From UHGV virus genome UHGV-0124835: 16,897 nucleotides of DNA, one strand, 5' to 3'. Numbering within the stretch: the stretch's first letter is position 1; every line of letters begins with the position of its first letter. Below, one piece after another: positions 7,384 through 15,151 of this stretch. Both the position numbers and the translations under genes were made by a program. The notes under the pieces are model-generated. The model worked only from the letters and a program-made list of their open reading frames with translations. It made no database searches and was not told where the DNA came from. Origin of the DNA: a virus.

Positions 7384-8073
7384 CTAACCAAATCTGTTTA
7401 TGTTGAATGGTACTGATGAGATCACTTTAGACTGGATATAAAGCAGAGCTAACCCCTCTTTTTCGATGCTCCATGGTTGATAATTGGGGTTATCAGATAA
7501 CACCATGATTTTGCTTCCAATTTTTTGAAGCCTTTTCACGTAGCATTCTCCATCAAAACAAAATGCATAAATACCATCGCCATCAAAATAAGTTACTGTC
7601 TTATCAAGAAAAAGAAGGTCGCCAGGTGAGATTGTGGGAGCCATACTGTCTCCTCTGGCGTTACCTATTTCTATATTTTTGAATGCCCGATTTCCAACAA
7701 GACGTCGGGCATATTCAGGATCAAGTTCTATTGAGCGCACTACATCTATCAAGTCACCACGGACATGAGTTCCATCACCGCAACTAAACTCAACATCAAG
7801 GACATTAAATACGACGCTATCTGTTCTTGTCTGGTGTTTCTCTTGCGAGGAAAAGGTTGGTGAGGAGTCTTCACCTAAGAACCAGGATTGTGGATAACCG
7901 CTAATCTCTGATAAATGCGCGAGCTTATCACTCCGTGGAAATGTTTTTCCTGTTGTCCAGTACTGCACTGATTGCGCACTCACACCTAACTTGCGGGCCA
8001 GTTGAGCCTGAGTCCATCCTTTTGCTTTCAGCATCGCGGCTATTCGATTTTCCGTGTTTTTGACGTTCTTCAT
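7384..8073 (-). CDS. cI-like prophage repressor (N-terminal HTH, C-terminal S24 LexA-like peptidase domain)
   Basis: Track ORF trimmed to the ATG at 8073 (MKNVKNTENRIAAMLKAKGWTQAQLARKLGVSAQSVQYW...); HTH near the N-terminus and a C-terminal domain with GDSMAPTISPGDLLFLD and a KRL motif typical of S24 autocleaving repressors; divergent from a cro-like gene. Confidence 0.9.
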   Translation of the reverse strand: MKNVKNTENRIAAMLKAKGWTQAQLARKLGVSAQSVQYWTTGKTFPRSDKLAHLSEISGYPQSWFLGEDSSPTFSSQEKHQTRTDSVVFNVLDVEFSCGDGTHVRGDLIDVVRSIELDPEYARRLVGNRAFKNIEIGNARGDSMAPTISPGDLLFLDKTVTYFDGDGIYAFCFDGECYVKRLQKIGSKIMVLSDNPNYQPWSIEKEGLALLYIQSKVISSVPFNINRFG

Positions 8074-8206
8074 GACCAAATCCTGTGGGTTTCTTTACAA
8101 GGATAAATCTTTACTTGATTTTAGTGTATTCGATCCTTTTGTAACTTGCATGTTAATTTAAACTTGATGTATTCTTGATTTATAAAGTTAATATTGGTGC
8201 TTTGTT
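8074..8206. promoter_or_regulatory. immunity-region intergenic: divergent cI/cro promoters and probable operators
   Basis: 133-nt AT-rich spacer between divergent repressor genes containing four CTTG(A/C) repeats (TACTTGAT 8111, AACTTGCA 8142, AACTTGAT 8160, TTCTTGAT 8172) plus TTACAAG/CTTGTAA-like elements; exact operators and -10/-35 boxes not resolved. Confidence 0.5.
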
Positions 8207-8479
8207 ATGGAAGGAAATGATTACGACAAACTTCGTGCATTAATTGCGCAAAATGCCATAGCGCGAAATCTTGGTGTGACGCCGCAAGCGGTGAATCAGT
8301 GGTTTTCAAAAAACACAATTCCTGCTCGTTTCGTTTTACGCGTATGTGAAGTAGTTGCATGGAAGGTCACGCCACATGGCTTAAGGCCAGATCTTTATCC
8401 TCACCCTGAAGATGGAATTCCTGATTCGTTACGCAAAATTTCAAATCCAAGCTTAGCGCACACAGAGGACGAGAAGTGA
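8207..8479 (+). CDS. Cro/YdaS-like HTH transcriptional regulator
   Basis: 90-aa ORF divergent from cI; motif LGVTPQAVNQWFSKNTIPARFVLRVCEVV...GLRPDLYPHPED resembles YdaS/Cro-family proteins. Confidence 0.75.
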   Translation: MEGNDYDKLRALIAQNAIARNLGVTPQAVNQWFSKNTIPARFVLRVCEVVAWKVTPHGLRPDLYPHPEDGIPDSLRKISNPSLAHTEDEK

Positions 8480-8843: not shown

Positions 8844-8962
8844 GTCGAACCTCCTTTGGTTCTTTTGTTTATAGGGATCAAAAGGATAACTGAAGGAAGG
8901 TTCGGCACCAATAAGTACGAATGTGCGGAATCTTAAAAGAATTTATCCGTAAGGAGATGGCA

Positions 8963-9568
8963 GTGAACACCGCAATTTTTAACGACAAAGCATCCATGAC
9001 CAGCGTTGAGATCGCAGAGCTGGTGGGTAGTCAGCACTCAGATGTTAAACGTAGTATCGAACGCCTGGTTGCTAAAAACATCATCCGGAAACCGCCAATG
9101 GCTGTTTCCGAGAAAATCAATAACTTAGGTTTTAAAGTTCAATATGAGCATTACCTGTTTGAAGGAGAACAAGGTAAGCGCGACAGCATCATTGTCGTCG
9201 CACAGCTCTGCCCTGAATTCACTGCTCGCCTGGTAGATCGCTGGCGTGAACTGGAAGAACAGATCCGTAAGCCAATGAGCGAAATCGAAATGGTTGCCGC
9301 GATGGCTCTTGAAGCCGTTCGCCAACAGAAACGGATCACTCAGGTGGAAGAAAAAGTCAGCCACGTTGCTGAAACAGTCGAGCAAATTAAAAAGGGCACT
9401 ATTCGTGAGGGCTATGCCGGATATCGCCAACTGAAAGCAAAAACCGGTTTGTCAGATGATAACCGCGAGGGACTCGCTGGTATCACCCGAAAATGGGGTT
9501 ATTTCAGGTTATTGGTTGGCAGCGGTGAAAAAAAGCCGGGAGTAACCCGGCTCACTCAACATCAATAA
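8963..9568 (+). CDS. Rha-family phage regulatory protein (antirepressor-like), paralog 1
   Basis: Motif MTSVEIAELVGSQHSDVKRSIERL typical of the Phage_pRha family. The track ORF starts at ATG 8921 with no SD; an in-frame ATG at 8957 abuts the AAGGAG; the GTG at 8963 has the best SD spacing and is used here. Confidence 0.75.
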   Translation: MNTAIFNDKASMTSVEIAELVGSQHSDVKRSIERLVAKNIIRKPPMAVSEKINNLGFKVQYEHYLFEGEQGKRDSIIVVAQLCPEFTARLVDRWRELEEQIRKPMSEIEMVAAMALEAVRQQKRITQVEEKVSHVAETVEQIKKGTIREGYAGYRQLKAKTGLSDDNREGLAGITRKWGYFRLLVGSGEKKPGVTRLTQHQ

Positions 9569-9658
9569 CGGGGAGCTGTTTCGCATAAAACGGCTCCGAA
9601 ACATCCAAGAACAGTTCTAAAGATATCAGCAGCTATATGATCATTTCAAGACCAAATA

Positions 9659-9687
9659 TTGATTCTGCAATTTCGGGACGTTACACT
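9659..9687 (+). promoter_or_regulatory. sigma70-like promoter of Rha module A (TTGATT-N17-TACACT)
   Basis: Read directly: TTGATT, 17-nt spacer, TACACT; the same element recurs almost base-for-base at 10315..10343. Confidence 0.55.
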
Positions 9688-9795
9688 GTCTCTGCACCTT
9701 ATAAAGCGGGTGCCGGGGGTCGCAGCCCGGAATTGCATACGGCGATATATGACGCGCCAGCGTCTTTTTTATCGTCCGCGCTCACGCACGCCAGA

Positions 9796-9906
9796 ATTAT
9801 GGTGGGCTGGGCAGGGGAGCCGAAAGGCTCGCCGGTTTCCGTATGCGCCGGTACTGCGAACCCTGTTCAGTTCACCACCCATGAGTTTCGCAGCTCCGGT
9901 GGTGGA
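9796..9906 (+). ncRNA. c4-like antisense RNA candidate, module A
   Basis: Conserved ATTATGGTGGG box; GAAA-tetraloop hairpin 9817-9830; CCGG-closed 12-nt loop TTTCCGTATGCG (9836-9847) complementary to TGCATACGGAGG at the SD of the downstream gene; 8-bp TCACCACC/GGTGGTGG stem (9872-9879 with 9898-9905). Ends are not defined. Confidence 0.5.
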
Positions 9907-9916
9907 AGTTATCCAT

Positions 9917-9928
9917 TGCATACGGAGG
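9917..9928 (+). promoter_or_regulatory. antisense target site overlapping the SD of Rha paralog 2
   Basis: TGCATACGGAGG pairs with loop 9836-9847 over 12 positions (9 Watson-Crick plus 3 G-U); a direct repeat of the core ATTGCATACGG is at 9731-9741. Confidence 0.5.
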
Positions 9929-9936
9929 CTGCCATC

Positions 9937-10299
9937 ATGGCTACTGTCCTAACTTCCCCATTCCTAAAAATCGAAGTCGTCAACGGCAAGGCCGTTATTT
10001 TCTCCCTGCATGTTGCCTGCCATTTCAAGCGCATGCACCAGAACATCGTTGACAAAATCGAGTATCTGAACTGCTCACGCGAGTTTTTTACCCGCAATTT
10101 CATACCGGGTACTTATCACATCTACGGTGACTCCCTGCGTGGTTATTACATCACCCTTGATGGTCTGATGATGCTTCAGCTTGGGTTAAGTCTGCGCACA
10201 ATGCGGTACTACGAGAGCTGCATTGAAGCATTCCATGAGGCTGAAACCGTCCAGGGTCACTCCGCGTTCCGTCGTAATCAACGGGAGGTGCACCTATGA
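9937..10299 (+). CDS. Rha-family phage regulatory protein, paralog 2 (120 aa)
   Basis: ATG at 9937 with GGAGG 8 nt upstream; Rha-like core IEVVNGKAVIFSLHVACHFKRMHQNIVDKIEYLNCSREF...YYITLDGLMML. The track ORF extends upstream to 9637 through the leader; that extension is judged non-coding. Confidence 0.65.
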   Translation: MATVLTSPFLKIEVVNGKAVIFSLHVACHFKRMHQNIVDKIEYLNCSREFFTRNFIPGTYHIYGDSLRGYYITLDGLMMLQLGLSLRTMRYYESCIEAFHEAETVQGHSAFRRNQREVHL

Positions 10300-10314
10300 T
10301 CCGCCACCAGCATA

Positions 10315-10343
10315 TTGATTCTGCAATTCCGGGACGTTACACT
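10315..10343 (+). promoter_or_regulatory. sigma70-like promoter of Rha module B (TTGATT-N17-TACACT)
   Basis: Same element and spacing as 9659..9687, inside a ~60-nt block nearly identical between the two modules. Confidence 0.55.
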
Positions 10344-10451
10344 GTCTCCGCACCTTATAAAGCGGGTGCCGGGCGTGGAAACCCGAAATTCAATATAGAG
10401 CACAACCGCGCTCATGCGGTTTTTTCGTGTCATGAGCATCGTTACGCCCAA

Positions 10452-10564
10452 ATTATGGTGGGGCGTGCAGGGCCAACTTCGGTTGGGCCGGGTTCTATGT
10501 TGACCGGTATTTCCACCCCTGTACGTCTCACCACCTATATGGTCGTGGAAAGCCTTGGTGGTGA
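10452..10564 (+). ncRNA. c4-like antisense RNA candidate, module B
   Basis: Same architecture as module A with compensatory changes: UUCG-tetraloop hairpin CCAAC-TTCG-GTTGG (10473-10486); CCGG-closed 12-nt loop GTTCTATGTTGA (10492-10503) complementary to TCAACATAGGGG at the SD of the downstream gene; conserved TCACCACC/GGTGGTGA stem. Confidence 0.5.
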
Positions 10565-10575
10565 GTTCATTGAAT

Positions 10576-10587
10576 TCAACATAGGGG
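10576..10587 (+). promoter_or_regulatory. antisense target site overlapping the SD of Rha paralog 3
   Basis: TCAACATAGGGG pairs with loop 10492-10503 (9 Watson-Crick plus 2 G-U); an upstream near-repeat TCAATATAGAG is at 10390-10400. Confidence 0.5.
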
Positions 10588-10595
10588 CTGTCACC

Positions 10596-11147
10596 ATGAC
10601 TACTCTCCCAACCCAATCTCACCCTGAAATCACGATTATCAATGGTCGCGTTGTCACCACATCTCTTGCAGTAGCTAATTACTTTACTAAACGGCATGAG
10701 CGGGTTTTAGATAGAATTAGAAACCTCGAATGTTCCGCTGAATTTACTGAACACAATTTTGTGTTAAGTGAATACACCGACGCATCAGGCCGCAAACTCC
10801 CTTGTTACCAAATCACCCGCGACGGTTTTGCGTTTCTTGCCATGGGCTTCACTGGTAAACGTGCTGCCCGGTTCAAAGAGGCATACATCAACGCCTTTAA
10901 CCTGATGGAGAAGAGTTTATCAGGTGCCGATGCGTCTGATATGTCAGCTGTCGCACGAAACGCCAGAGGCGTATACCTGCATTTGCGTGAAATCCATCAA
11001 ATCTGGACAAGCCAGCTTTATCCAATGCTTAAGGCCGTTGAATCTCCGCTGGCTAGCAAACTGTACGACCGTGTTGGTGATGCTGTTTTTGGCGCTGCAC
11101 TTGTTGATTCCAGGCTGAATGGTTCTGACAAGGAGGTTCGCCCATGA
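10596..11147 (+). CDS. Rha-family phage regulatory protein, paralog 3 (183 aa)
   Basis: ATG at 10596 with AGGGG 8 nt upstream; Rha-like core ITIINGRVVTTSLAVANYFTKRHERVLDRIRNLECSAEF...YQITRDGFAFLAMGFTGKRAARFKEAYINAFN. The track ORF extends upstream to 10296 through the leader. Confidence 0.65.
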   Translation: MTTLPTQSHPEITIINGRVVTTSLAVANYFTKRHERVLDRIRNLECSAEFTEHNFVLSEYTDASGRKLPCYQITRDGFAFLAMGFTGKRAARFKEAYINAFNLMEKSLSGADASDMSAVARNARGVYLHLREIHQIWTSQLYPMLKAVESPLASKLYDRVGDAVFGAALVDSRLNGSDKEVRP

Positions 11148-11338
11148 TTAGTTACGAAATCATCATCTCCACTACGGAATACAGAAACGATGTATCAGTT
11201 CGCACGGATGTATCTGTCTGGCACCGTCGCTATAAATCCAGAAAAACAGCGGAACTGAAAGCGGCAGAGATGTGTGAAACCATCTCAATGAAAGGTAGCC
11301 CGGTTAAATACGTAACTACGGCGGAGGTGCGTCCATGA
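11144..11338 (+). CDS. hypothetical protein (64 aa)
   Basis: ATG overlaps the stop of the Rha gene (ATGA); AAGGAGG upstream. Confidence 0.6.
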   Translation: MISYEIIISTTEYRNDVSVRTDVSVWHRRYKSRKTAELKAAEMCETISMKGSPVKYVTTAEVRP

Positions 11339-11559
11339 TCCGCCACATCGTTAATTCCCTGTATCACCGATACAACCGTTGCCCCCGTGTGGGGCAGTGG
11401 TTCGCCACCAGCAACGGTCACGTTCTGCGGGTTTGCCTAGTCAACGCTGAAAGCCAGAAAGTCGTGTGCGAACTACAGGGGCGTAGCTACACCATCAGTT
11501 ACCCTCTGGCGGTATTTCTGTCTGGAAAAATGTTTAAGCGTCTGGGAGGTGTGGCGTGA
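11335..11559 (+). CDS. hypothetical protein (74 aa)
   Basis: ATGA overlap with the upstream stop; GGAGG upstream. Confidence 0.6.
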   Translation: MIRHIVNSLYHRYNRCPRVGQWFATSNGHVLRVCLVNAESQKVVCELQGRSYTISYPLAVFLSGKMFKRLGGVA

Positions 11560-11855
11560 ACTGTTTTCAGTTTGTGTGCGGATGTGCTTTCGATAACCCG
11601 ATTCAGCGCCTAATTATGTTGCGTGTTTTGATGTCGGGTTCTTCAGACGGTGAAGGCGAGAGAGTTATTGATCATCAGGTGCTTGCTGATTTCTGCTGTT
11701 GTTCTAAGCAAGCGATATTCAGGGAAACCCTGGCACTGGAAAGAGCTGGTTATCTTCATATCCGAAAAATTGCAACGCTTACTATTGATGCAAAAGCCAG
11801 ACTACAACCTGCGCGTGGCTACACAATTCTCATGCCGCGGAAGGAGGTTGTATGA
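11556..11855 (+). CDS. hypothetical protein (99 aa), possibly winged-helix DNA-binding
   Basis: GTG start overlapping the upstream stop (GTGA) with GGGAGG upstream; translationally coupled to the replication gene that follows. Confidence 0.55.
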   Translation: MNCFQFVCGCAFDNPIQRLIMLRVLMSGSSDGEGERVIDHQVLADFCCCSKQAIFRETLALERAGYLHIRKIATLTIDAKARLQPARGYTILMPRKEVV

Positions 11856-12844
11856 GCCGTTACGCCCCCACACCGGAAGTTATGGCTATTGGTCAAATTA
11901 ATATTTCCGGCAATGTTACACCTGCGAACTGGTGGAAATATATTCGACTACCCAGTGGGCGTCCGGATGCGACGGCTATCGCTCTGCTTTCAGAGATCGT
12001 TTACTGGTACCGCCCGACAGAGGTCAGGGATGAGCACACCGGAGCGTTGCTGGGATATCGCAAGCGTTTTCAGGGCGACAAACTGCAAAGAAGCTACCAG
12101 GCGTTTGCTGAGCAGTTTGGTTTCGGGAAAAGGGAAACCGCAGATGCGCTGAAGCGTCTGCGCGATGCAGGGTTTATTACTCTGGATTTACGCACGGTGG
12201 AAATGCTCGATGGGGTGAAATGCAGCAATATTTTGTTTGTCGGGATCAACCCACAGGCAATTGCGGCCATCACCACACCTTCTTCTGTTTCGCCAGAAAG
12301 TAACAGCAATAATGCAATCAGCGATACAGCTATTACGTTAAAACGGAACAGCCCCCGACGTCATAACGGAACAGGGGATACGCCGAATGTTGATACAAAT
12401 ACAGAGATTACTACAGAGATTACAACGGAGACTAAAAACACTATTGATGCATCCGCTGACGCGTCTGCGCCAGCGCGTTCTGCCCGACAGGAATATTCAC
12501 CGGAATTTGAACAGGCCTGGCAGGAATATCCCAAACGTGCTGGTGGCAATTCCAAGTCAGCAGCCTTCAAAGCCTGGAAAGCCCGTATCAGGGAGGGAAT
12601 AAAACCGGAGACCATGCTTGATGGCGTGAAGCGGTATGCCGCCTGGGTACGTGCTACAGGAAATACCGGCACACAGTTCGTGAAGCAGGCTGCGACGTTC
12701 TTTGGACCCGATCGTCACTTCGAAGATTACTGGCAACAGCCAGCCGCTCACGGAGGTGGGCGACAGCGACAGGTCGATGTCCTGGCTGGCCTGGGAGCCA
12801 TGTCTGACAAATTCGGTAAATCCAGTAACAAATTGACATTCTGA
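11852..12844 (+). CDS. phage replication initiation / replisome organizer protein (O-like)
   Basis: 330-aa ORF, ATGA-coupled to the upstream gene; two-domain layout with an internal low-complexity linker containing DNA direct repeats; C-terminal region EFEQAWQEYPKRAGGNSKSAAFKAWKARIREGI... resembles the conserved C-terminus of enterobacterial phage replication proteins (from memory). Confidence 0.75.
   Translation: MSRYAPTPEVMAIGQINISGNVTPANWWKYIRLPSGRPDATAIALLSEIVYWYRPTEVRDEHTGALLGYRKRFQGDKLQRSYQAFAEQFGFGKRETADALKRLRDAGFITLDLRTVEMLDGVKCSNILFVGINPQAIAAITTPSSVSPESNSNNAISDTAITLKRNSPRRHNGTGDTPNVDTNTEITTEITTETKNTIDASADASAPARSARQEYSPEFEQAWQEYPKRAGGNSKSAAFKAWKARIREGIKPETMLDGVKRYAAWVRATGNTGTQFVKQAATFFGPDRHFEDYWQQPAAHGGGRQRQVDVLAGLGAMSDKFGKSSNKLTF
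12343..12436 (+). repeat. short direct repeats inside the O-like gene (candidate iterons)
   Basis: AACGGAACAG at 12343 and 12365; tandem 12-mers ACAGAGATTACT / ACAGAGATTACA / ACGGAGACTAAA at 12401-12436, encoding TEITTEITTET. Confidence 0.45.
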
Positions 12845-12854
12845 GGTGACAGCG

Positions 12855-13754
12855 ATGATGACGATTGACCAACGTGAGAAACAAACAAGACTACAGGCGC
12901 GAATGGATGAGTTACGGGCAGAAATGGATGAGTTACGGGCAGAGATTGCATTTGCTCAGAAGGGCGAAAAGCCATGGCCTTATCGTTCCTGCCTGATGCG
13001 TGAAGATCGCGGATATTGCGAAAAACACGGTAAATATCGTACGCATATACTGGTGTGGATCGATCGTAATGGCGAGGACAGAGAAAAAATTTCATGCTGC
13101 CCTGACTGCTTGATCGCTGAGGCCAGTGATTTGACCATGGAACTGTCGTCCCTCAAGGCGGAAGAACTGACTGATAACGCCGGAATTGCTCTGCGTTTTC
13201 GGGACTGCGAGTTTGATAATTATCTGGAGGTTAATCCTGACGCAGCCAGAAATCTTGCGGCCTGTCGCCGCTATGCGGAGAACTGGCCAGATATGCTGGA
13301 GAACGGTACCAGTATTGTTATGACCGGCAGTTGCGGTACCGGGAAAAATCATCTGGCGGTATCAATGGCAAAACACATCATCCGTAACTATCTGGCCAGT
13401 GTGGAGATCACCGACGTGATGCGCCTTACCCGGGCTGTGAAAAACTGCTGGCGGAATGACAGTGAAAAAACAGCGGATGACGTCATTGAGCATTATGCGT
13501 CACTGGATTTGCTGATTGTCGACGAAGTCGGCGTTCAGTTTGGCAGTGCGGCTGAAATGGCCATTTTGCAGGAAATTATCAATGCCCGGTATGAGGGTAT
13601 TTTGCCAACTATCCTGATCAGCAACCTTTCACCGGAAGAATTGTGGGCGTTCATCAGTCCCCGGATTGCCGACAGGATCACCGATGGCGGGCGCAACTGG
13701 TTGTCGTTTAACTGGCCCAGCTACCGTTCTCGTATCGGAGGTGTTGCCGCATGA
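12855..13754 (+). CDS. DnaC-like helicase loader (IstB-like AAA+ ATPase) with N-terminal Cys-rich extension
   Basis: Walker A GSCGTGKNHLAVSMAK and Walker B LLIVDEVG. The track start at 12846 is a GTG overlapping the SD; ATG at 12855 follows GAGGTG at good spacing. Confidence 0.85.
   Translation: MMTIDQREKQTRLQARMDELRAEMDELRAEIAFAQKGEKPWPYRSCLMREDRGYCEKHGKYRTHILVWIDRNGEDREKISCCPDCLIAEASDLTMELSSLKAEELTDNAGIALRFRDCEFDNYLEVNPDAARNLAACRRYAENWPDMLENGTSIVMTGSCGTGKNHLAVSMAKHIIRNYLASVEITDVMRLTRAVKNCWRNDSEKTADDVIEHYASLDLLIVDEVGVQFGSAAEMAILQEIINARYEGILPTILISNLSPEELWAFISPRIADRITDGGRNWLSFNWPSYRSRIGGVAA
12903..12944 (+). repeat. 21-bp tandem duplication (2 copies, 20/21 identical)
   Basis: ATGGATGAGTTACGGGCAGAA followed by ATGGATGAGTTACGGGCAGAG; an in-frame duplication of the heptad MDELRAE in the N-terminus of the DnaC-like gene. 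Confidence 0.8.
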
Positions 13755-15151
13755 CCAGCCAGAACACCCCGGCATGGCGTAACGATGACCTGGAAGGCGC
13801 TGTCATCGGTGCGTTTTTTCTGCGTGGGGCCGATCCGGAAGTGATGGATATTCTGGCCACACTTCCGGCGGATGTATTTTTTGTGCGTCAGTACCGGGAT
13901 ATTTACGCGGGGATTTGCAGACAGGCTCGCATATCCGGCGTCATTGACCCCGTACTGCTGTGCAATGAGATGCCGGAACTTGCCCCGGTGATTACCGACA
14001 CCGGACGCAAAACCTGGGTGAAGTCTTCACTGGAGCACTATGTCGCAGCGTTGCGGCGCAATGCCGCACTGCGCGATGCAGAAAAAACACTGACTGAAGC
14101 ATTACAGAATTTACGTGATGCGTATACCTGTGAAGCAGCCGAGGATGCCCTGAAGGATGCGCAGAACATGATGGCCTCACTGTCGACCGGAAAGGGCGTC
14201 ATTCAGCCGGTTCACATTGATGATGTCCTTCCGGAAGTGGTCGACCGTGTTGAATGCCGCAATCAGGGACTGGAGAAATCCAGGGCGCTGATGACCGGTA
14301 TTGATGAACTGGACGCAAAAACGGGCGGTATGGAGCCCGGAGACCTGGTATTCATTGCCGCCCGTCCTTCGATGGGGAAAACCGAACTTGCGCTGGACAT
14401 CATCGACAAGGTGACTGAGCAGGGGCATGGCGTGCTTCTGTTCACCATGGAGATGGCGAACATCCAGATTGGTGAACGTATGGTGTCTGCTGCCGGTGGA
14501 ATGCCGGTATCCCGTCTTAAGTCTGTTGCCCGTTTTGAAGATGAAGACTGGGCGCGTTTCACGCAGGGCGTGGGACGAATGACGGGGCGTAATATCTGGA
14601 TGGTGGACCAGGCAAACCTGACCATTGATGAGATATGTGCAACCACGAAGCACCACCGGATGAAACACCCGGAAACGGCGCTGGTGGTGGTCGATTACCT
14701 CGGCCTGATTAAAACCCGCAGCACGGGGCGTCACGACCTTGCGGTGGGGGAAATCTCAAAGGGACTTAAAAGCCTGGCAAAATCCGGCGGTTTTCCGCTG
14801 ATTGCTCTGAGCCAGCTCTCCCGCGGCGTGGAATCCAGACCCAATAAACGCCCAATGAACTCGGACCTGAAAAACTCCGGGGAAATCGAGGCGGATGCCG
14901 ACATCATTCTGATGCTTTACAGGGATGAGGTATACAACCCGGAAACTCAGGCCAGAGGCATAGCAGAAATCAACATCACGAAACAGCGTAATGGCACGCT
15001 GGGTACCATTTACCGGCGTTTTCATAACGGGCATTTTCTGCCTGTGGATCAGGAGAGTGCCCGGGTTCTTTCCACACCCATGACGCCGGGCAATCCGCGC
15101 AGATACAGCAATAACCGCATGTCGGGCAGTAAAACGGAGCGTTTATTTTGA
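13751..15151 (+). CDS. DnaB-like replicative DNA helicase
   Basis: 466-aa ORF, ATGA-coupled with GGAGGTG upstream; Walker A GDLVFIAARPSMGKTELALDI and overall DnaB-family organisation. Confidence 0.9.
   Translation: MTSQNTPAWRNDDLEGAVIGAFFLRGADPEVMDILATLPADVFFVRQYRDIYAGICRQARISGVIDPVLLCNEMPELAPVITDTGRKTWVKSSLEHYVAALRRNAALRDAEKTLTEALQNLRDAYTCEAAEDALKDAQNMMASLSTGKGVIQPVHIDDVLPEVVDRVECRNQGLEKSRALMTGIDELDAKTGGMEPGDLVFIAARPSMGKTELALDIIDKVTEQGHGVLLFTMEMANIQIGERMVSAAGGMPVSRLKSVARFEDEDWARFTQGVGRMTGRNIWMVDQANLTIDEICATTKHHRMKHPETALVVVDYLGLIKTRSTGRHDLAVGEISKGLKSLAKSGGFPLIALSQLSRGVESRPNKRPMNSDLKNSGEIEADADIILMLYRDEVYNPETQARGIAEINITKQRNGTLGTIYRRFHNGHFLPVDQESARVLSTPMTPGNPRRYSNNRMSGSKTERLF

Follow-up and report, generated by a model that had tools for sequence, protein, structure and literature searches.

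Two short Rha genes of a viral genome (UHGV-0124835; the window is the whole stretch of 16,897 nucleotides analysed here) are each preceded by a leader with an open reading frame of exactly 100 codons, which raises the question of what this frame is for. The two leader modules, A and then B, stand in tandem, each ahead of its Rha gene; flanking them are an S24 CI-like repressor gene (7384-8079, minus strand), a Cro-like gene at 8207, and replication genes (11852-15151), and the modules belong to a lambdoid E. coli prophage that has a CI/Cro protein switch. E. coli S1-IND-01-B has this prophage at 98.8% identity. The sequence-only reading of this DNA saw in the leaders possible N-terminal extensions of Rha; its coordinates and frame are right, but it overlooked that the leaders primarily are RNA genes. 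Judged from their sequence, the two repeat in tandem an RNA switch familiar from phages, in which an IsrK/seqA-like small RNA is followed by a C4/CI-like antisense RNA (IsrK is equated with seqA, and C4 with CI, in PMC3632133); the locus is thus a further example of an already known system, not a new kind.

The matches to the isrK model span its full length (1-77) in both modules, and a terminator scan predicts an intrinsic terminator towards the 3' end of each (Table 1). RNAs of the C4 class, to which P1 c4 and P4 CI belong, are made from a precursor that RNase P and PNPase process to a stable RNA of about 77 nt. The C4 fold is supported by compensatory double changes in 11 of its 27 pairs among 46 distinct homologous C4 sequences, with canonical pairs in 99.8% of the cells. 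Between 8000 and 12000, at E<=1, there are no further IsrK/C4 remnants near Rha1, bar a sub-threshold match to RF03163 (c4-a1b1) inside module B (10337-10389). The module family as a whole is matched in 1,423 of 5,426 complete E. coli genomes and in 365 phage records, many Stx phages included.

Table 1. Features of the two modules, in window coordinates; promoters, transcription start sites (TSS), terminators, RNAs and their segments are predictions.
Feature	Position	Strand	Details
Leader ORF A	9637-9936	+	100 codons, in frame with short Rha A; start 57 nt upstream of predicted TSS
Promoter A	9659-9687	+	TTGATT 9659-9664, 17-nt spacer, TACACT 9682-9687; predicted TSS G9694
IsrK/seqA-like sRNA A	9694-9770	+	Rfam RF01394, 58.8 bits (gathering 50)
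Box a1, module A	9720-9726	+	TCGCAGC, within IsrK A hairpin 2
Box b1, module A	9735-9742	+	GCATACGG, within IsrK A
Intrinsic terminator A	9751-9770	+	GC stem 9751-9764 and T-run to 9770
C4/CI-like antisense RNA A	9795-9882	+	Rfam RF01695, 83.3 bits (gathering 45)
C4 A segments	9836-9847; 9853-9860	+	b' loop; a' single strand (MFE fold)
Target region A	9886-9936	+	a2 TCGCAGC 9888-9894; b2 TTGCATACGG 9916-9925
Short Rha A	9937-10299	+	120 aa; Pfam Phage_pRha (PF09669) 30.0 bits (cut-off 29.9), borderline
Coupling junction	10283-10299	+	SD GGGAGGTG 10283-10290; ATGA 10296-10299
Leader ORF B	10296-10595	+	100 codons, in frame with short Rha B; start 54 nt upstream of predicted TSS
Promoter B	10315-10343	+	TTGATT 10315-10320, 17-nt spacer, TACACT 10338-10343; predicted TSS G10350
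IsrK/seqA-like sRNA B	10350-10426	+	Rfam RF01394, 61.6 bits (gathering 50)
Box a1, module B	10375-10381	+	GTGGAAA, within IsrK B
Box b1, module B	10391-10398	+	CAATATAG, within IsrK B
Intrinsic terminator B	10404-10425	+	GC stem 10404-10421 and T-run
C4/CI-like antisense RNA B	10451-10538	+	Rfam RF01695, 82.4 bits (gathering 45)
C4 B segments	10492-10503; 10509-10516	+	b' loop; a' (MFE fold)
Target region B	10539-10595	+	a2 GTGGAAA 10545-10551; b2 CAACATAG 10577-10584
Short Rha B	10596-11147	+	183 aa; Pfam Phage_pRha (PF09669) 105.8 bits (cut-off 29.9)

In both modules, the a' and b' segments of C4 are complementary to a1 and b1 within IsrK and to a2 and b2 over the Shine-Dalgarno sequence (SD) of the short Rha gene. 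The b2 box of module A overlaps the SD GGAGG (9924-9928), 8 nt ahead of the ATG at 9937; that of module B abuts an SD-like AGGGG (10583-10587) ahead of the ATG at 10596. The nucleotide conservation of the leaders is thus explained by RNA genes with complementary boxes on the Rha ribosome-binding site. Pairing was evaluated on box-level duplexes; predicted duplexes of the C4 core with all of IsrK or of the target region were extensive and bulged and did not discriminate. Within its own module, b' pairs with b2 at -21.6 kcal/mol in A, in a duplex that covers the SD, and at -16.0 kcal/mol in B, against -7.9 kcal/mol for A on B and -6.6 kcal/mol for B on A. As the a and b alleles differ, the two modules are orthogonal, and each C4 is expected to act on its own module only. 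The same holds across homologous modules, where the b'-b2 duplex averages -17.7 kcal/mol for cognate and -7.9 kcal/mol for non-cognate pairs, and where only 2-4% of foreign targets form a stronger duplex than the cognate one. A search for extra trans targets of the b boxes gave equal rates for cognate and non-cognate boxes (0.297 and 0.296 per module), and thus no evidence of such targets; given this equality, a GCATACGGGAG site at 6018-6008 (minus strand) is taken as chance.

The start of each module repeats a block, of some 60 nt in the earlier description, that is identical between the two in 59 of 62 positions (9655-9716 and 10311-10372), and a recheck finds TTGATT-N17-TACACT in both where that description had placed it. 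That this element is a promoter is supported by comparison with homologues, but to call it a good sigma70 promoter goes beyond its own sequence, which matches the consensus at 8 of 12 positions; the promoter scan, with its threshold of 9 of 12, lists neither copy. We therefore rely, in place of the scan, on the comparative position of the -10 hexamer: homologous leaders have at least four promoter sequences unrelated to one another, all of which place it about 7 nt before the same GCACC, and the conserved -10 ends 7 nt ahead of the 5' end of IsrK. The IsrK numbering in Gifsy-1, where the orf45 AUG is A107 (PMC4825925), fits a +1 at position 1 of the Rfam isrK model, which is 9694 in module A and 10350 in module B. 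Sequence, homology and comparison together place a promoter inside each long ORF, with transcription predicted to start at G9694 and G10350. Both leader ATGs precede these starts, so that transcripts from the internal promoters are unable to translate them, as had been pointed out before.

From ATG 9637 to ATG 9937, and from ATG 10296 to ATG 10596, each leader measures exactly 300 nt with zero in-frame stops, and the whole long ORFs run in frame through the RNA genes from 9637 to 10299 (A) and from 10296 to 11147 (B). The equal length of exactly 100 codons is a coincidence: the leaders add up as 57 + 243 nt in A and 54 + 246 nt in B, upstream and downstream of the predicted start of transcription, a 3-nt shift of the ATG being offset by a 3-nt indel at a2. 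The start of leader B overlaps the stop of Rha A behind an SD, as the sequence-only reading had it; the stop of Rha B in turn overlaps the start of the next ORF (ATGA at 11144), and the chain of coupled ORFs leads to the replication genes. ATG 9637 has neither a Shine-Dalgarno sequence nor upstream coupling, with a 68-nt untranslated gap before it, and a long form of module A is thus doubtful. The proposal that read-through transcripts yield N-terminally extended Rha proteins consequently gains from a precedent in phage P4, from the retention of the open frame, and from the start/stop overlaps, but loses ground for module A. The two short Rha proteins share 36% identity; that of module A consists of a Rha-type N-terminal domain and corresponds in position to P4 Kil and P1 Icd. 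RefSeq/PGAP annotates the region only as its longest ORFs, an 'ash family protein' (the 220-aa long form of A) and a 'Rha family phage regulatory protein', and gives no ncRNA; its users thus see nothing of the regulators, namely the two sRNAs, the promoter, and the terminator of each module.

For the nesting of a long and a short form, the right comparison is with eta/kil of P4, not with P1. In the account of Forti et al. (1999) given in PMC10111431, experiments show that the long form of eta/kil is made only from read-through transcripts, that eta is translated, and that its translation suppresses immunity-dependent termination. The P4 immunity region (PLE promoter, seqA, CI RNA, seqC, eta/kil) resembles the present modules in having its promoter internal to the long ORF, an IsrK-type element (seqA) followed by a C4-type RNA (CI), and a long ORF that stays in frame through both RNAs to the start of the short gene (EAAIMAT...); in NC_001609, Rfam places isrK at 8692-8615 and C4 at 8507-8420, both within the eta ORF (8767-8168), and the start of Kil, ...EAAIMATTLTPSHPE, resembles ...EAAIMATVLTSP in the present modules. 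Like the long ORF of module B, but unlike that of module A, eta begins with an ATG that overlaps the stop of the gene before it, ORF88. Further, the Pfam family Phage_ASH covers the same segment, namely residues 22-146 of Eta (E=4e-23), leader A (E=2e-15), and leader B (E=4e-7). The differences are that the cargo here is a Rha-family regulator instead of Kil, that the element is a lambdoid prophage with its protein switch and not a satellite, that IsrK and C4 lie 84 nt closer together, that two cassettes of different specificity stand in tandem, and that the long-form start of module A is uncoupled.

The resemblance to the icd/ant coupling of P1, which had been proposed for these leaders, holds in part. 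The link to P1 is real, since C4 is a homologue of P1 c4 within the same a1b1-c4-a2b2 layout; as annotated in the P1 record, immI of P1/P7 has a promoter, a1 and b1, C4 with a' and b', a2 and b2, and the ribosome-binding site of the first gene, and its a and b boxes set specificity (compare the heteroimmunity of P1 and P7). In both systems the first gene is also ATGA-coupled to the next, icd to ant1 in P1 (starts at 48470 and 48688 in the record) and Rha A to long Rha B here. However, the frame through c4 contains stops in P1, which thus lacks a long nested form; the target there is the small icd with ant behind it, whereas here the SD is that of the Rha gene itself, the boxes lying directly on it with no separate icd-like ORF between b2 and Rha in either module; and the promoters of P1 are C1-controlled.

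Each module is probably an RNA immunity cassette of the P4/P1 type that sits in frame within a Rha (Bro-network) regulator gene; its transcription start, processing, termination, and long-form translation are predictions. The first 77 nt of the promoter transcript would form the IsrK/seqA-like sRNA, ending at the intrinsic terminator, and transcripts that read through the terminator would contain the C4/CI-like RNA. By analogy with experiments in P1, P4, and Gifsy-1, C4 in the lysogen would mask the Rha ribosome-binding site, leaving short Rha untranslated and letting transcription stop ahead of the downstream replication genes; the short IsrK-like RNA would compete for C4 and tip the balance towards expression. 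Such a cassette explains how an antirepressor-type Rha and the replication genes that follow it can stay silent in a lysogen. As in the design of eta/kil, the internal constitutive promoter would make the immunity RNAs and the short protein, and the long form would be translatable only from upstream transcripts, coupled in module B to the upstream gene through ATGA. These upstream transcripts would be those of the early-right operon, starting near the Cro-like gene; on them, ribosomes would enter at ATG 10296 via coupling to the Rha A stop and then cross promoter B, IsrK B, its terminator, C4 B, and the a2/b2 boxes. Ribosomes passing in this way would break up the terminator structure and the sites bound by the antisense RNA, so that early transcripts would escape the RNA immunity; they would also produce a Rha B with an N-terminal extension, of 283 aa in all. 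Module A may behave likewise, though its ATG has no ribosome-binding site. The leader frame would thus matter by being translatable, not by its peptide, to judge from eta/kil and from the conservation of the frame described below.

Another use of the frame is suggested by the isrK-orf45-anrP locus of Gifsy-1 in Salmonella (PMC4825925), which likewise belongs to a lambdoid prophage and has IsrK with its terminator, a C4-type RNA (STnc1160), boxes on the SD of an antirepressor-like gene, and an AUG in corresponding position (+107 there, +106 here) from which orf45 begins in the same frame. Experiments on this locus validated the a1-a' pairing by compensatory mutations, established by SPA-tagging that the orf45 AUG is used, found translation of orf45 to be needed for that of anrP, and showed IsrK in trans to activate translation through orf45; they thus support a logic that differs in part from the present model. 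In the leaders studied here, an in-frame AUG at the 5' edge of C4 (9799 in A, 10455 in B) is conserved in all sampled leaders, and read-through transcripts of the internal promoter could be translated from it, a reading that could coexist with ribosome transit from upstream but that we consider somewhat unlikely. Neither AUG is preceded by a Shine-Dalgarno sequence, and both lie within the closing stem of the very stable C4 fold (-46 kcal/mol, MFE). In Gifsy-1 a 4-nt shorter loop shifts the frame so that orf45 ends on the anrP AUG (AUGA); here a small ORF ending on the downstream start is absent, the frame from 9799 or 10455 entering Rha without a stop, and the outcome would therefore differ, Rha being extended by 46-47 aa, to about 166 aa in A and about 230 aa in B, with no coupled small peptide. 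Nor would this start explain why the frame is open upstream of the AUG and even of the start of transcription. In Gifsy-1 the frame closes two codons before the C4 AUG, whereas the present one is open from upstream of the promoter and fused to Rha. The Gifsy-1 locus also differs in following the Q antiterminator gene instead of lying in the early-right operon, and Rha B has no homology to AnrP (BLASTP E=3.2), so that a transfer of function from AnrP is unjustified.

The openness of the leaders could also be fortuitous, with only the RNAs and short Rha functional, the frame open through RNA conservation, and the RefSeq long forms artefacts of an annotation that picks the longest ORFs and records no ncRNA in this region. 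A single open frame of 100 codons is indeed expected in about 5% of dinucleotide shuffles of the same composition, and other frames are almost open too (+ frame 1 of A has a single stop, and one minus frame of B has no stop at all); the two leaders, being homologous, are not independent evidence. By itself the open frame is thus weak evidence and becomes significant only through comparison with homologues. In an alignment of 82 distinct homologous leaders, which were picked with one RNA sequence pattern and not by their ORFs, stops occupy 2 columns in frame against 17 and 20 in the other two frames, both in-frame columns being singletons and one of them coming from a truncated copy (binomial P = 2.8e-5, in a test that overstates independence because the leaders are phylogenetically related); the depletion holds in the hypervariable boxes as well. 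All length differences among the leaders are multiples of 3, the C4 AUG being found at +106, +109, or +115 and the gene ATG at +244 or +247, with P4 longer by 84 nt, and in many homologues the start of the leader ORF overlaps the stop of a sizeable upstream ORF in the ATGA manner.

RNA function alone does not force the frame open, since P1, Gifsy-1, and two divergent leaders (L009 and L096) keep the RNAs with stops in the leader frame; for P1 and Gifsy-1 this equally means that such a switch works with the frame closed. In 29 of 116 modules the leader and the gene behind it are in different frames; fusion in frame is frequent without being a requirement. Some of the openness could descend from conserved RNA sequence. 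Variability shows no codon-position periodicity (0.70, 0.73, and 0.71 bits), which rules out an ordinary protein-coding leader and indicates that the leader peptide is not under ordinary protein selection; like the missing SD of ATG 9637, this would also be expected of a fortuitous ORF. Weighed against the in-frame stop depletion, the lengths in multiples of 3, the recurrent overlaps, and the experimental effect of eta translation in P4, a fortuitous origin is unlikely. What appears from the alignment to be conserved is the frame rather than the peptide, and the comparative data offer a clean case in which selection acts on the translatability of a frame and not on its peptide.

That Ash (PF10554) is a genuine folded domain whose amino-acid sequence contributes to the function of long Rha is very improbable in spite of the significant Pfam matches in both leader translations and in Eta, the conserved open frame, and conserved motifs such as APYK-GAG, for the invariant stretches are the IsrK hairpins and C4 stems, so that conservation tracks RNA features, the variable ones are the a and b boxes, whose variation is matched between complementary partners, third-position changes are not in excess, the Pfam match and the nucleotide conservation both set in at the -10 hexamer, and the nucleotides of orf45 are conserved while its amino acids vary (PMC4825925). 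In its RNA covariation and lack of codon periodicity, the family that RefSeq calls 'ash family protein' behaves as a translated RNA cassette and not as a protein domain.

Carried further, and tentatively, the preferred reading of an immunity cassette crossed by ribosomes may extend to the 'Ash domain' of many prophage and satellite regulators, which would then be a dual-use cassette whose frame is kept only for the ribosome transit that switches RNA immunity off early; the two orthogonal cassettes of the present prophage could act as independent serial RNA locks upstream of the replication genes, beside the protein CI repressor, with specificities drawn from a pool of at least 14 a and at least 25 b alleles. 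The cassette predicts cross-talk between co-resident prophages that share a and b alleles. Among the homologous modules, the boxes occur in 47 distinct combinations made up of 14 a' and 25 b' alleles, a natural series that provides a ready set of orthogonal RNA regulators for engineering.

The leaders ahead of the two short Rha genes (Rha A, 9937-10299, 120 aa; Rha B, 10596-11147, 183 aa) lie in a lambdoid prophage and each carry two RNA genes: an Rfam scan gives four matches above the gathering score, one IsrK and one C4 antisense RNA per leader. Both IsrK-like elements have a GC hairpin and then a T-run at their 3' end, and the predicted C4 folds (-46 and -44 kcal/mol) have the family's long closing stem and two internal hairpins; among homologues, compensatory double changes occur at 11 of 27 C4 base pairs, with canonical pairing in 99.8% of cells. 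Downstream of the modules follow small ORFs coupled by ATGA or GTGA, and then the replication genes. IsrK and C4 are structural homologues of seqA and CI RNA, and some lambdoid prophages carry an 'IsrK-C4 immunity system' (PMC3632133); the P1 record (annotated a1b1 / c4 / a2b2) and P4 (seqA / CI / seqC) have the same layout as the modules here.

Features of the prophage and of its tandem modules A and B
Feature	Position	Strand	Complement in C4	Source
Integrase	50-1363	minus
S24 CI-like repressor	7384-8079	minus
Cro-like gene	8207-8479
Rha1	8921-9568
IsrK (RF01394), module A	9694-9770			Rfam scan
Box a, module A: TCGCAG(C)	9720 and 9888		a' at 9853-9860
Box b, module A: GCATACGG	9735 and 9918		b' at 9836-9847
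C4 antisense RNA (RF01695), module A	9795-9882			Rfam scan
IsrK (RF01394), module B	10350-10426			Rfam scan
Box a, module B: GTGGAAA	10375 and 10545
Box b, module B: CAA(T/C)ATAG	10391 and 10577
C4 antisense RNA (RF01695), module B	10451-10538			Rfam scan
Replication genes: O-like ORF, DnaC-like loader, DnaB helicase	11852-15151

Homologues come from a single exact-pattern scan of IMG/VR for IsrK 5' hairpins, and are phylogenetically related; its 120 stretches, with the window's two modules, provided 119 copies of the module, among which 85 leaders are distinct.

The sequence-only reading had placed a promoter, TTGATT-17-nt spacer-TACACT, at 9659-9687 and 10315-10343, in a block nearly identical between the modules (here 59/62 positions). 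Its coordinates hold, but not the strength it drew from sequence alone: the promoter matches 8/12 consensus positions and is absent from the promoter scan list, and when either leader is dinucleotide-shuffled, a 100-codon open frame appears about 5% of the time. The best evidence here for a real promoter is comparative, in that homologous leaders have promoters of at least four unrelated sequence types (TTGATT..TACACT, TTGCCA..TACATT, TTGAAA..TATAGT, and others), with the distance from the -10 hexamer to GCACC constant across all types. The IsrK model starts 7 nt past the final base of TACACT, and at the homologous, experimentally studied Salmonella locus of Gifsy-1 the first AUG of orf45 is numbered A107 (PMC4825925); on the Gifsy-1 sequence this AUG is at +107 when +1 is position 1 of the Rfam isrK model. 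The promoter is thus probably that of IsrK, with transcription starting, by homology, at G9694 and G10350. Given these starts, neither leader ATG is part of the promoter-derived transcript, which begins 3' of both, as had been proposed.

Two segments of the IsrK alignment are hypervariable, a1 in hairpin 2 and b1 directly after it; they recur in the same sense 3' of C4 as the target boxes a2 and b2, and C4 carries their reverse complements, a' in its 3' single strand and b' in the loop of its hairpin 2. Box b2 enters the Shine-Dalgarno sequence of the short Rha gene, and GGAGG of module A falls within the 14-bp b'-b2 duplex. The 14 a' and 25 b' alleles occur in 47 distinct combinations; in box-level estimates the mean b'-b2 duplex has -17.7 kcal/mol for cognate vs -7.9 for non-cognate pairs, and a foreign target gives stronger pairing than the cognate target in only 2-4% of cases. 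Within the window these box-level estimates are -21.6 (A on A), -7.9 (A on B), -16.0 (B on B), and -6.6 kcal/mol (B on A); at the level of predicted pairing, modules A and B are orthogonal. Tandem pairs at four homologous loci (L003, L010, L016, L082) likewise differ in a, b, or both. At two further loci the IsrK box does not fit the C4 and target of the same module: L088 (module at 586) has CAATATAG as b1 but CACCAAAG as b' and b2, and in L011 a1 is unlike a' and a2; to judge from their boxes, both arose by natural recombination, with exchange between the IsrK half of the cassette and its C4 half. On the minus strand of the window (6018-5897), GCATACGGGAG is a perfect match to the module A b-box that runs into a Shine-Dalgarno sequence, 6 nt 5' of ATG 6001, where a leftward-operon ORF of 34 aa begins; as an additional target it is probably due to chance, since extra cognate b-box sites show no general excess in 118 modules (0.297 vs 0.296 per module in the control).

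Between ATG 9637 and ATG 9937, and between ATG 10296 and ATG 10596, 300 nt each, there is no in-frame stop, and ATG 10296 overlaps, as ATGA, the stop codon of the Rha gene before it, GGGAGGTG being found upstream (here at 10283-10290), all as first reported. The exact length of 100 codons in both leaders is a coincidence (-57 + 243 in A, -54 + 246 in B), and other frames of these segments are also almost open. Across 82 aligned distinct leaders, chosen by RNA motif and not by ORF calls, the interval +1 to +238 has stops in the leader frame in only two alignment columns, each in one sequence, one of these a truncated copy, against 17 and 20 stop columns in the other two frames; the binomial P of 2.8e-5 for this depletion is optimistic because the sequences are related. 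TGA, TAG, and TAA triplets are numerous in the hypervariable boxes, always out of frame; leader lengths differ by multiples of three, with the C4 AUG at +106, +109, or +115 and the gene ATG at +244 or +247; and the frame is open across every promoter variant too. Its usual start codon is found 51-57 nt 5' of the transcription start, or far upstream within a larger ORF, and often shares bases with the stop codon of a sizeable ORF before it. Codon periodicity of variability is not found in the leaders (0.70, 0.73, and 0.71 bits for the first, second, and third positions), and the alignment indicates that what is kept is the frame, not the peptide. RNA function alone does not force an open frame, because, unlike in the window, it is interrupted in P1 (stops inside c4), in Gifsy-1 (closed by a stop two codons 5' of the C4 AUG, and shifted within the loop), and in the divergent leaders L009 and L096.

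In P4 (NC_001609, minus strand), IsrK (8692-8615) and C4 (8507-8420) lie within one ORF, eta (199 codons), with a spacer 84 nt longer than in the window modules, again a multiple of three; its ATG 8767 overlaps the ORF88 stop, and Pfam Ash covers residues 22-146. The 65-aa Kil starts ...EAAIMATTLTPSHPE, much like ...EAAIMATVLTSP in Rha A and MTTLPTQSHPE in Rha B. Translation of Eta blocks termination, and Kil is translated upon occasional read-through (experiments of Forti et al., 1999, as summarised in PMC10111431). All sequence-level elements of this eta/kil design are present in the window, most fully in module B.

In a lysogen, the internal promoters would yield IsrK-like RNAs and, by read-through of the terminator, C4-like RNAs; C4 would pair with a2/b2, block the Rha ribosome-binding site, and let transcription stop before the replication genes, with the IsrK-like RNA competing for C4. 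On early-operon transcripts, ribosomes ending Rha A would reinitiate at ATG 10296 and cross promoter B, IsrK B with its terminator, C4 B, and a2/b2, which would make these transcripts insensitive to RNA immunity and produce an extended Rha B. The same transit may occur in module A, whose ATG 9637, however, stands behind a 68-nt gap and lacks a Shine-Dalgarno sequence. At two homologous loci (L032, L045) the Rha1 homologue, having no stop, continues in frame into a leader of the module A type, and the separate Rha1 and uncoupled ATG 9637 of the window may therefore be a derived, decayed arrangement. A GC-rich hairpin at the end of Rha1 (9533-9553), which on the plus strand precedes the gap, scores as a terminator on the minus strand only, where the T-run lies.

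Compatible with ribosome transit, a translation start at the conserved AUG on the 5' border of C4 (9799, 10455), as for orf45 in Gifsy-1, is a possible if doubtful addition; here it would produce a Rha form longer by 46-47 aa and no separate orf45. That the leader ORFs are fortuitous, which would account for the absent periodicity and for the missing Shine-Dalgarno sequence in module A, we consider unlikely, as it leaves the stop depletion, the indels in multiples of three, and the recurrent coupling unexplained. Translations of both leaders match the Pfam 'Ash protein family' (PF10554), but a real folded Ash domain is highly improbable, conservation following RNA pairing.

RefSeq/PGAP annotates in L001 (NZ_CP145655.1 1860271-1861781, the counterpart of window 9637-11147) the long forms only, A with 220 aa ('ash family protein') and B with 283 aa ('Rha family phage regulatory protein'), and no ncRNA, promoter, or terminator, though Rfam has both RNA families. 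The parts and their logic are already known from P4, P1/P7, and Gifsy-1, and are detected by Rfam and Pfam; specific here are a pair of Rha regulators as cargo, the location in a lambdoid early-right operon ahead of the replication genes, two tandem cassettes of different specificity, and comparative evidence indicating a frame maintained without peptide constraint. The importance lies chiefly in annotation and in the understanding of cross-immunity between prophages; the cassette family is widespread, with matches in 1,423/5,426 complete E. coli genomes and in 365 phage records, including many from Stx phages.

At some loci the leader frame extends further. In P4-like satellites (L007, L011, L018, and other TTGCCA..TACATT loci) the gene with Shine-Dalgarno and ATG after the cassette, for a 76-aa protein (MANRKQ...), is out of frame with the leader, yet the leader frame overlaps it and has no stop for about another 100 codons, to +559. 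Elsewhere (L006, L017, L020, and similar, about -360 to -1; also L030, L037, L054, L066, L073) it extends far upstream, from an ATG that overlaps the stop of an upstream ORF and through a conserved segment whose S/L/R/C-rich translation (e.g. ...GSQKHSALSIFAKTTRM..LCGNSGVILLSVK...) does not look like a protein; this segment may be a further element that acts as nucleic acid and is read in frame. A 139-aa ORF opposite leader B (10278-10697, minus strand) is most likely an accident of low stop density in a structured, G+C-rich segment. The junction ahead of leader B at 10282-10307 (GGAGGTGCACCTATGATCCGCCAC) closely resembles 11321-11346 (GGAGGTGCGTCCATGATCCGCCAC), the start of a 74-aa ORF at 11335, both ORFs beginning MIRH, and the leader ORF start ATGATCCGC(A/C)AC is found at several unrelated loci; this suggests that recombination at a conserved junction of gene starts moves the cassette.
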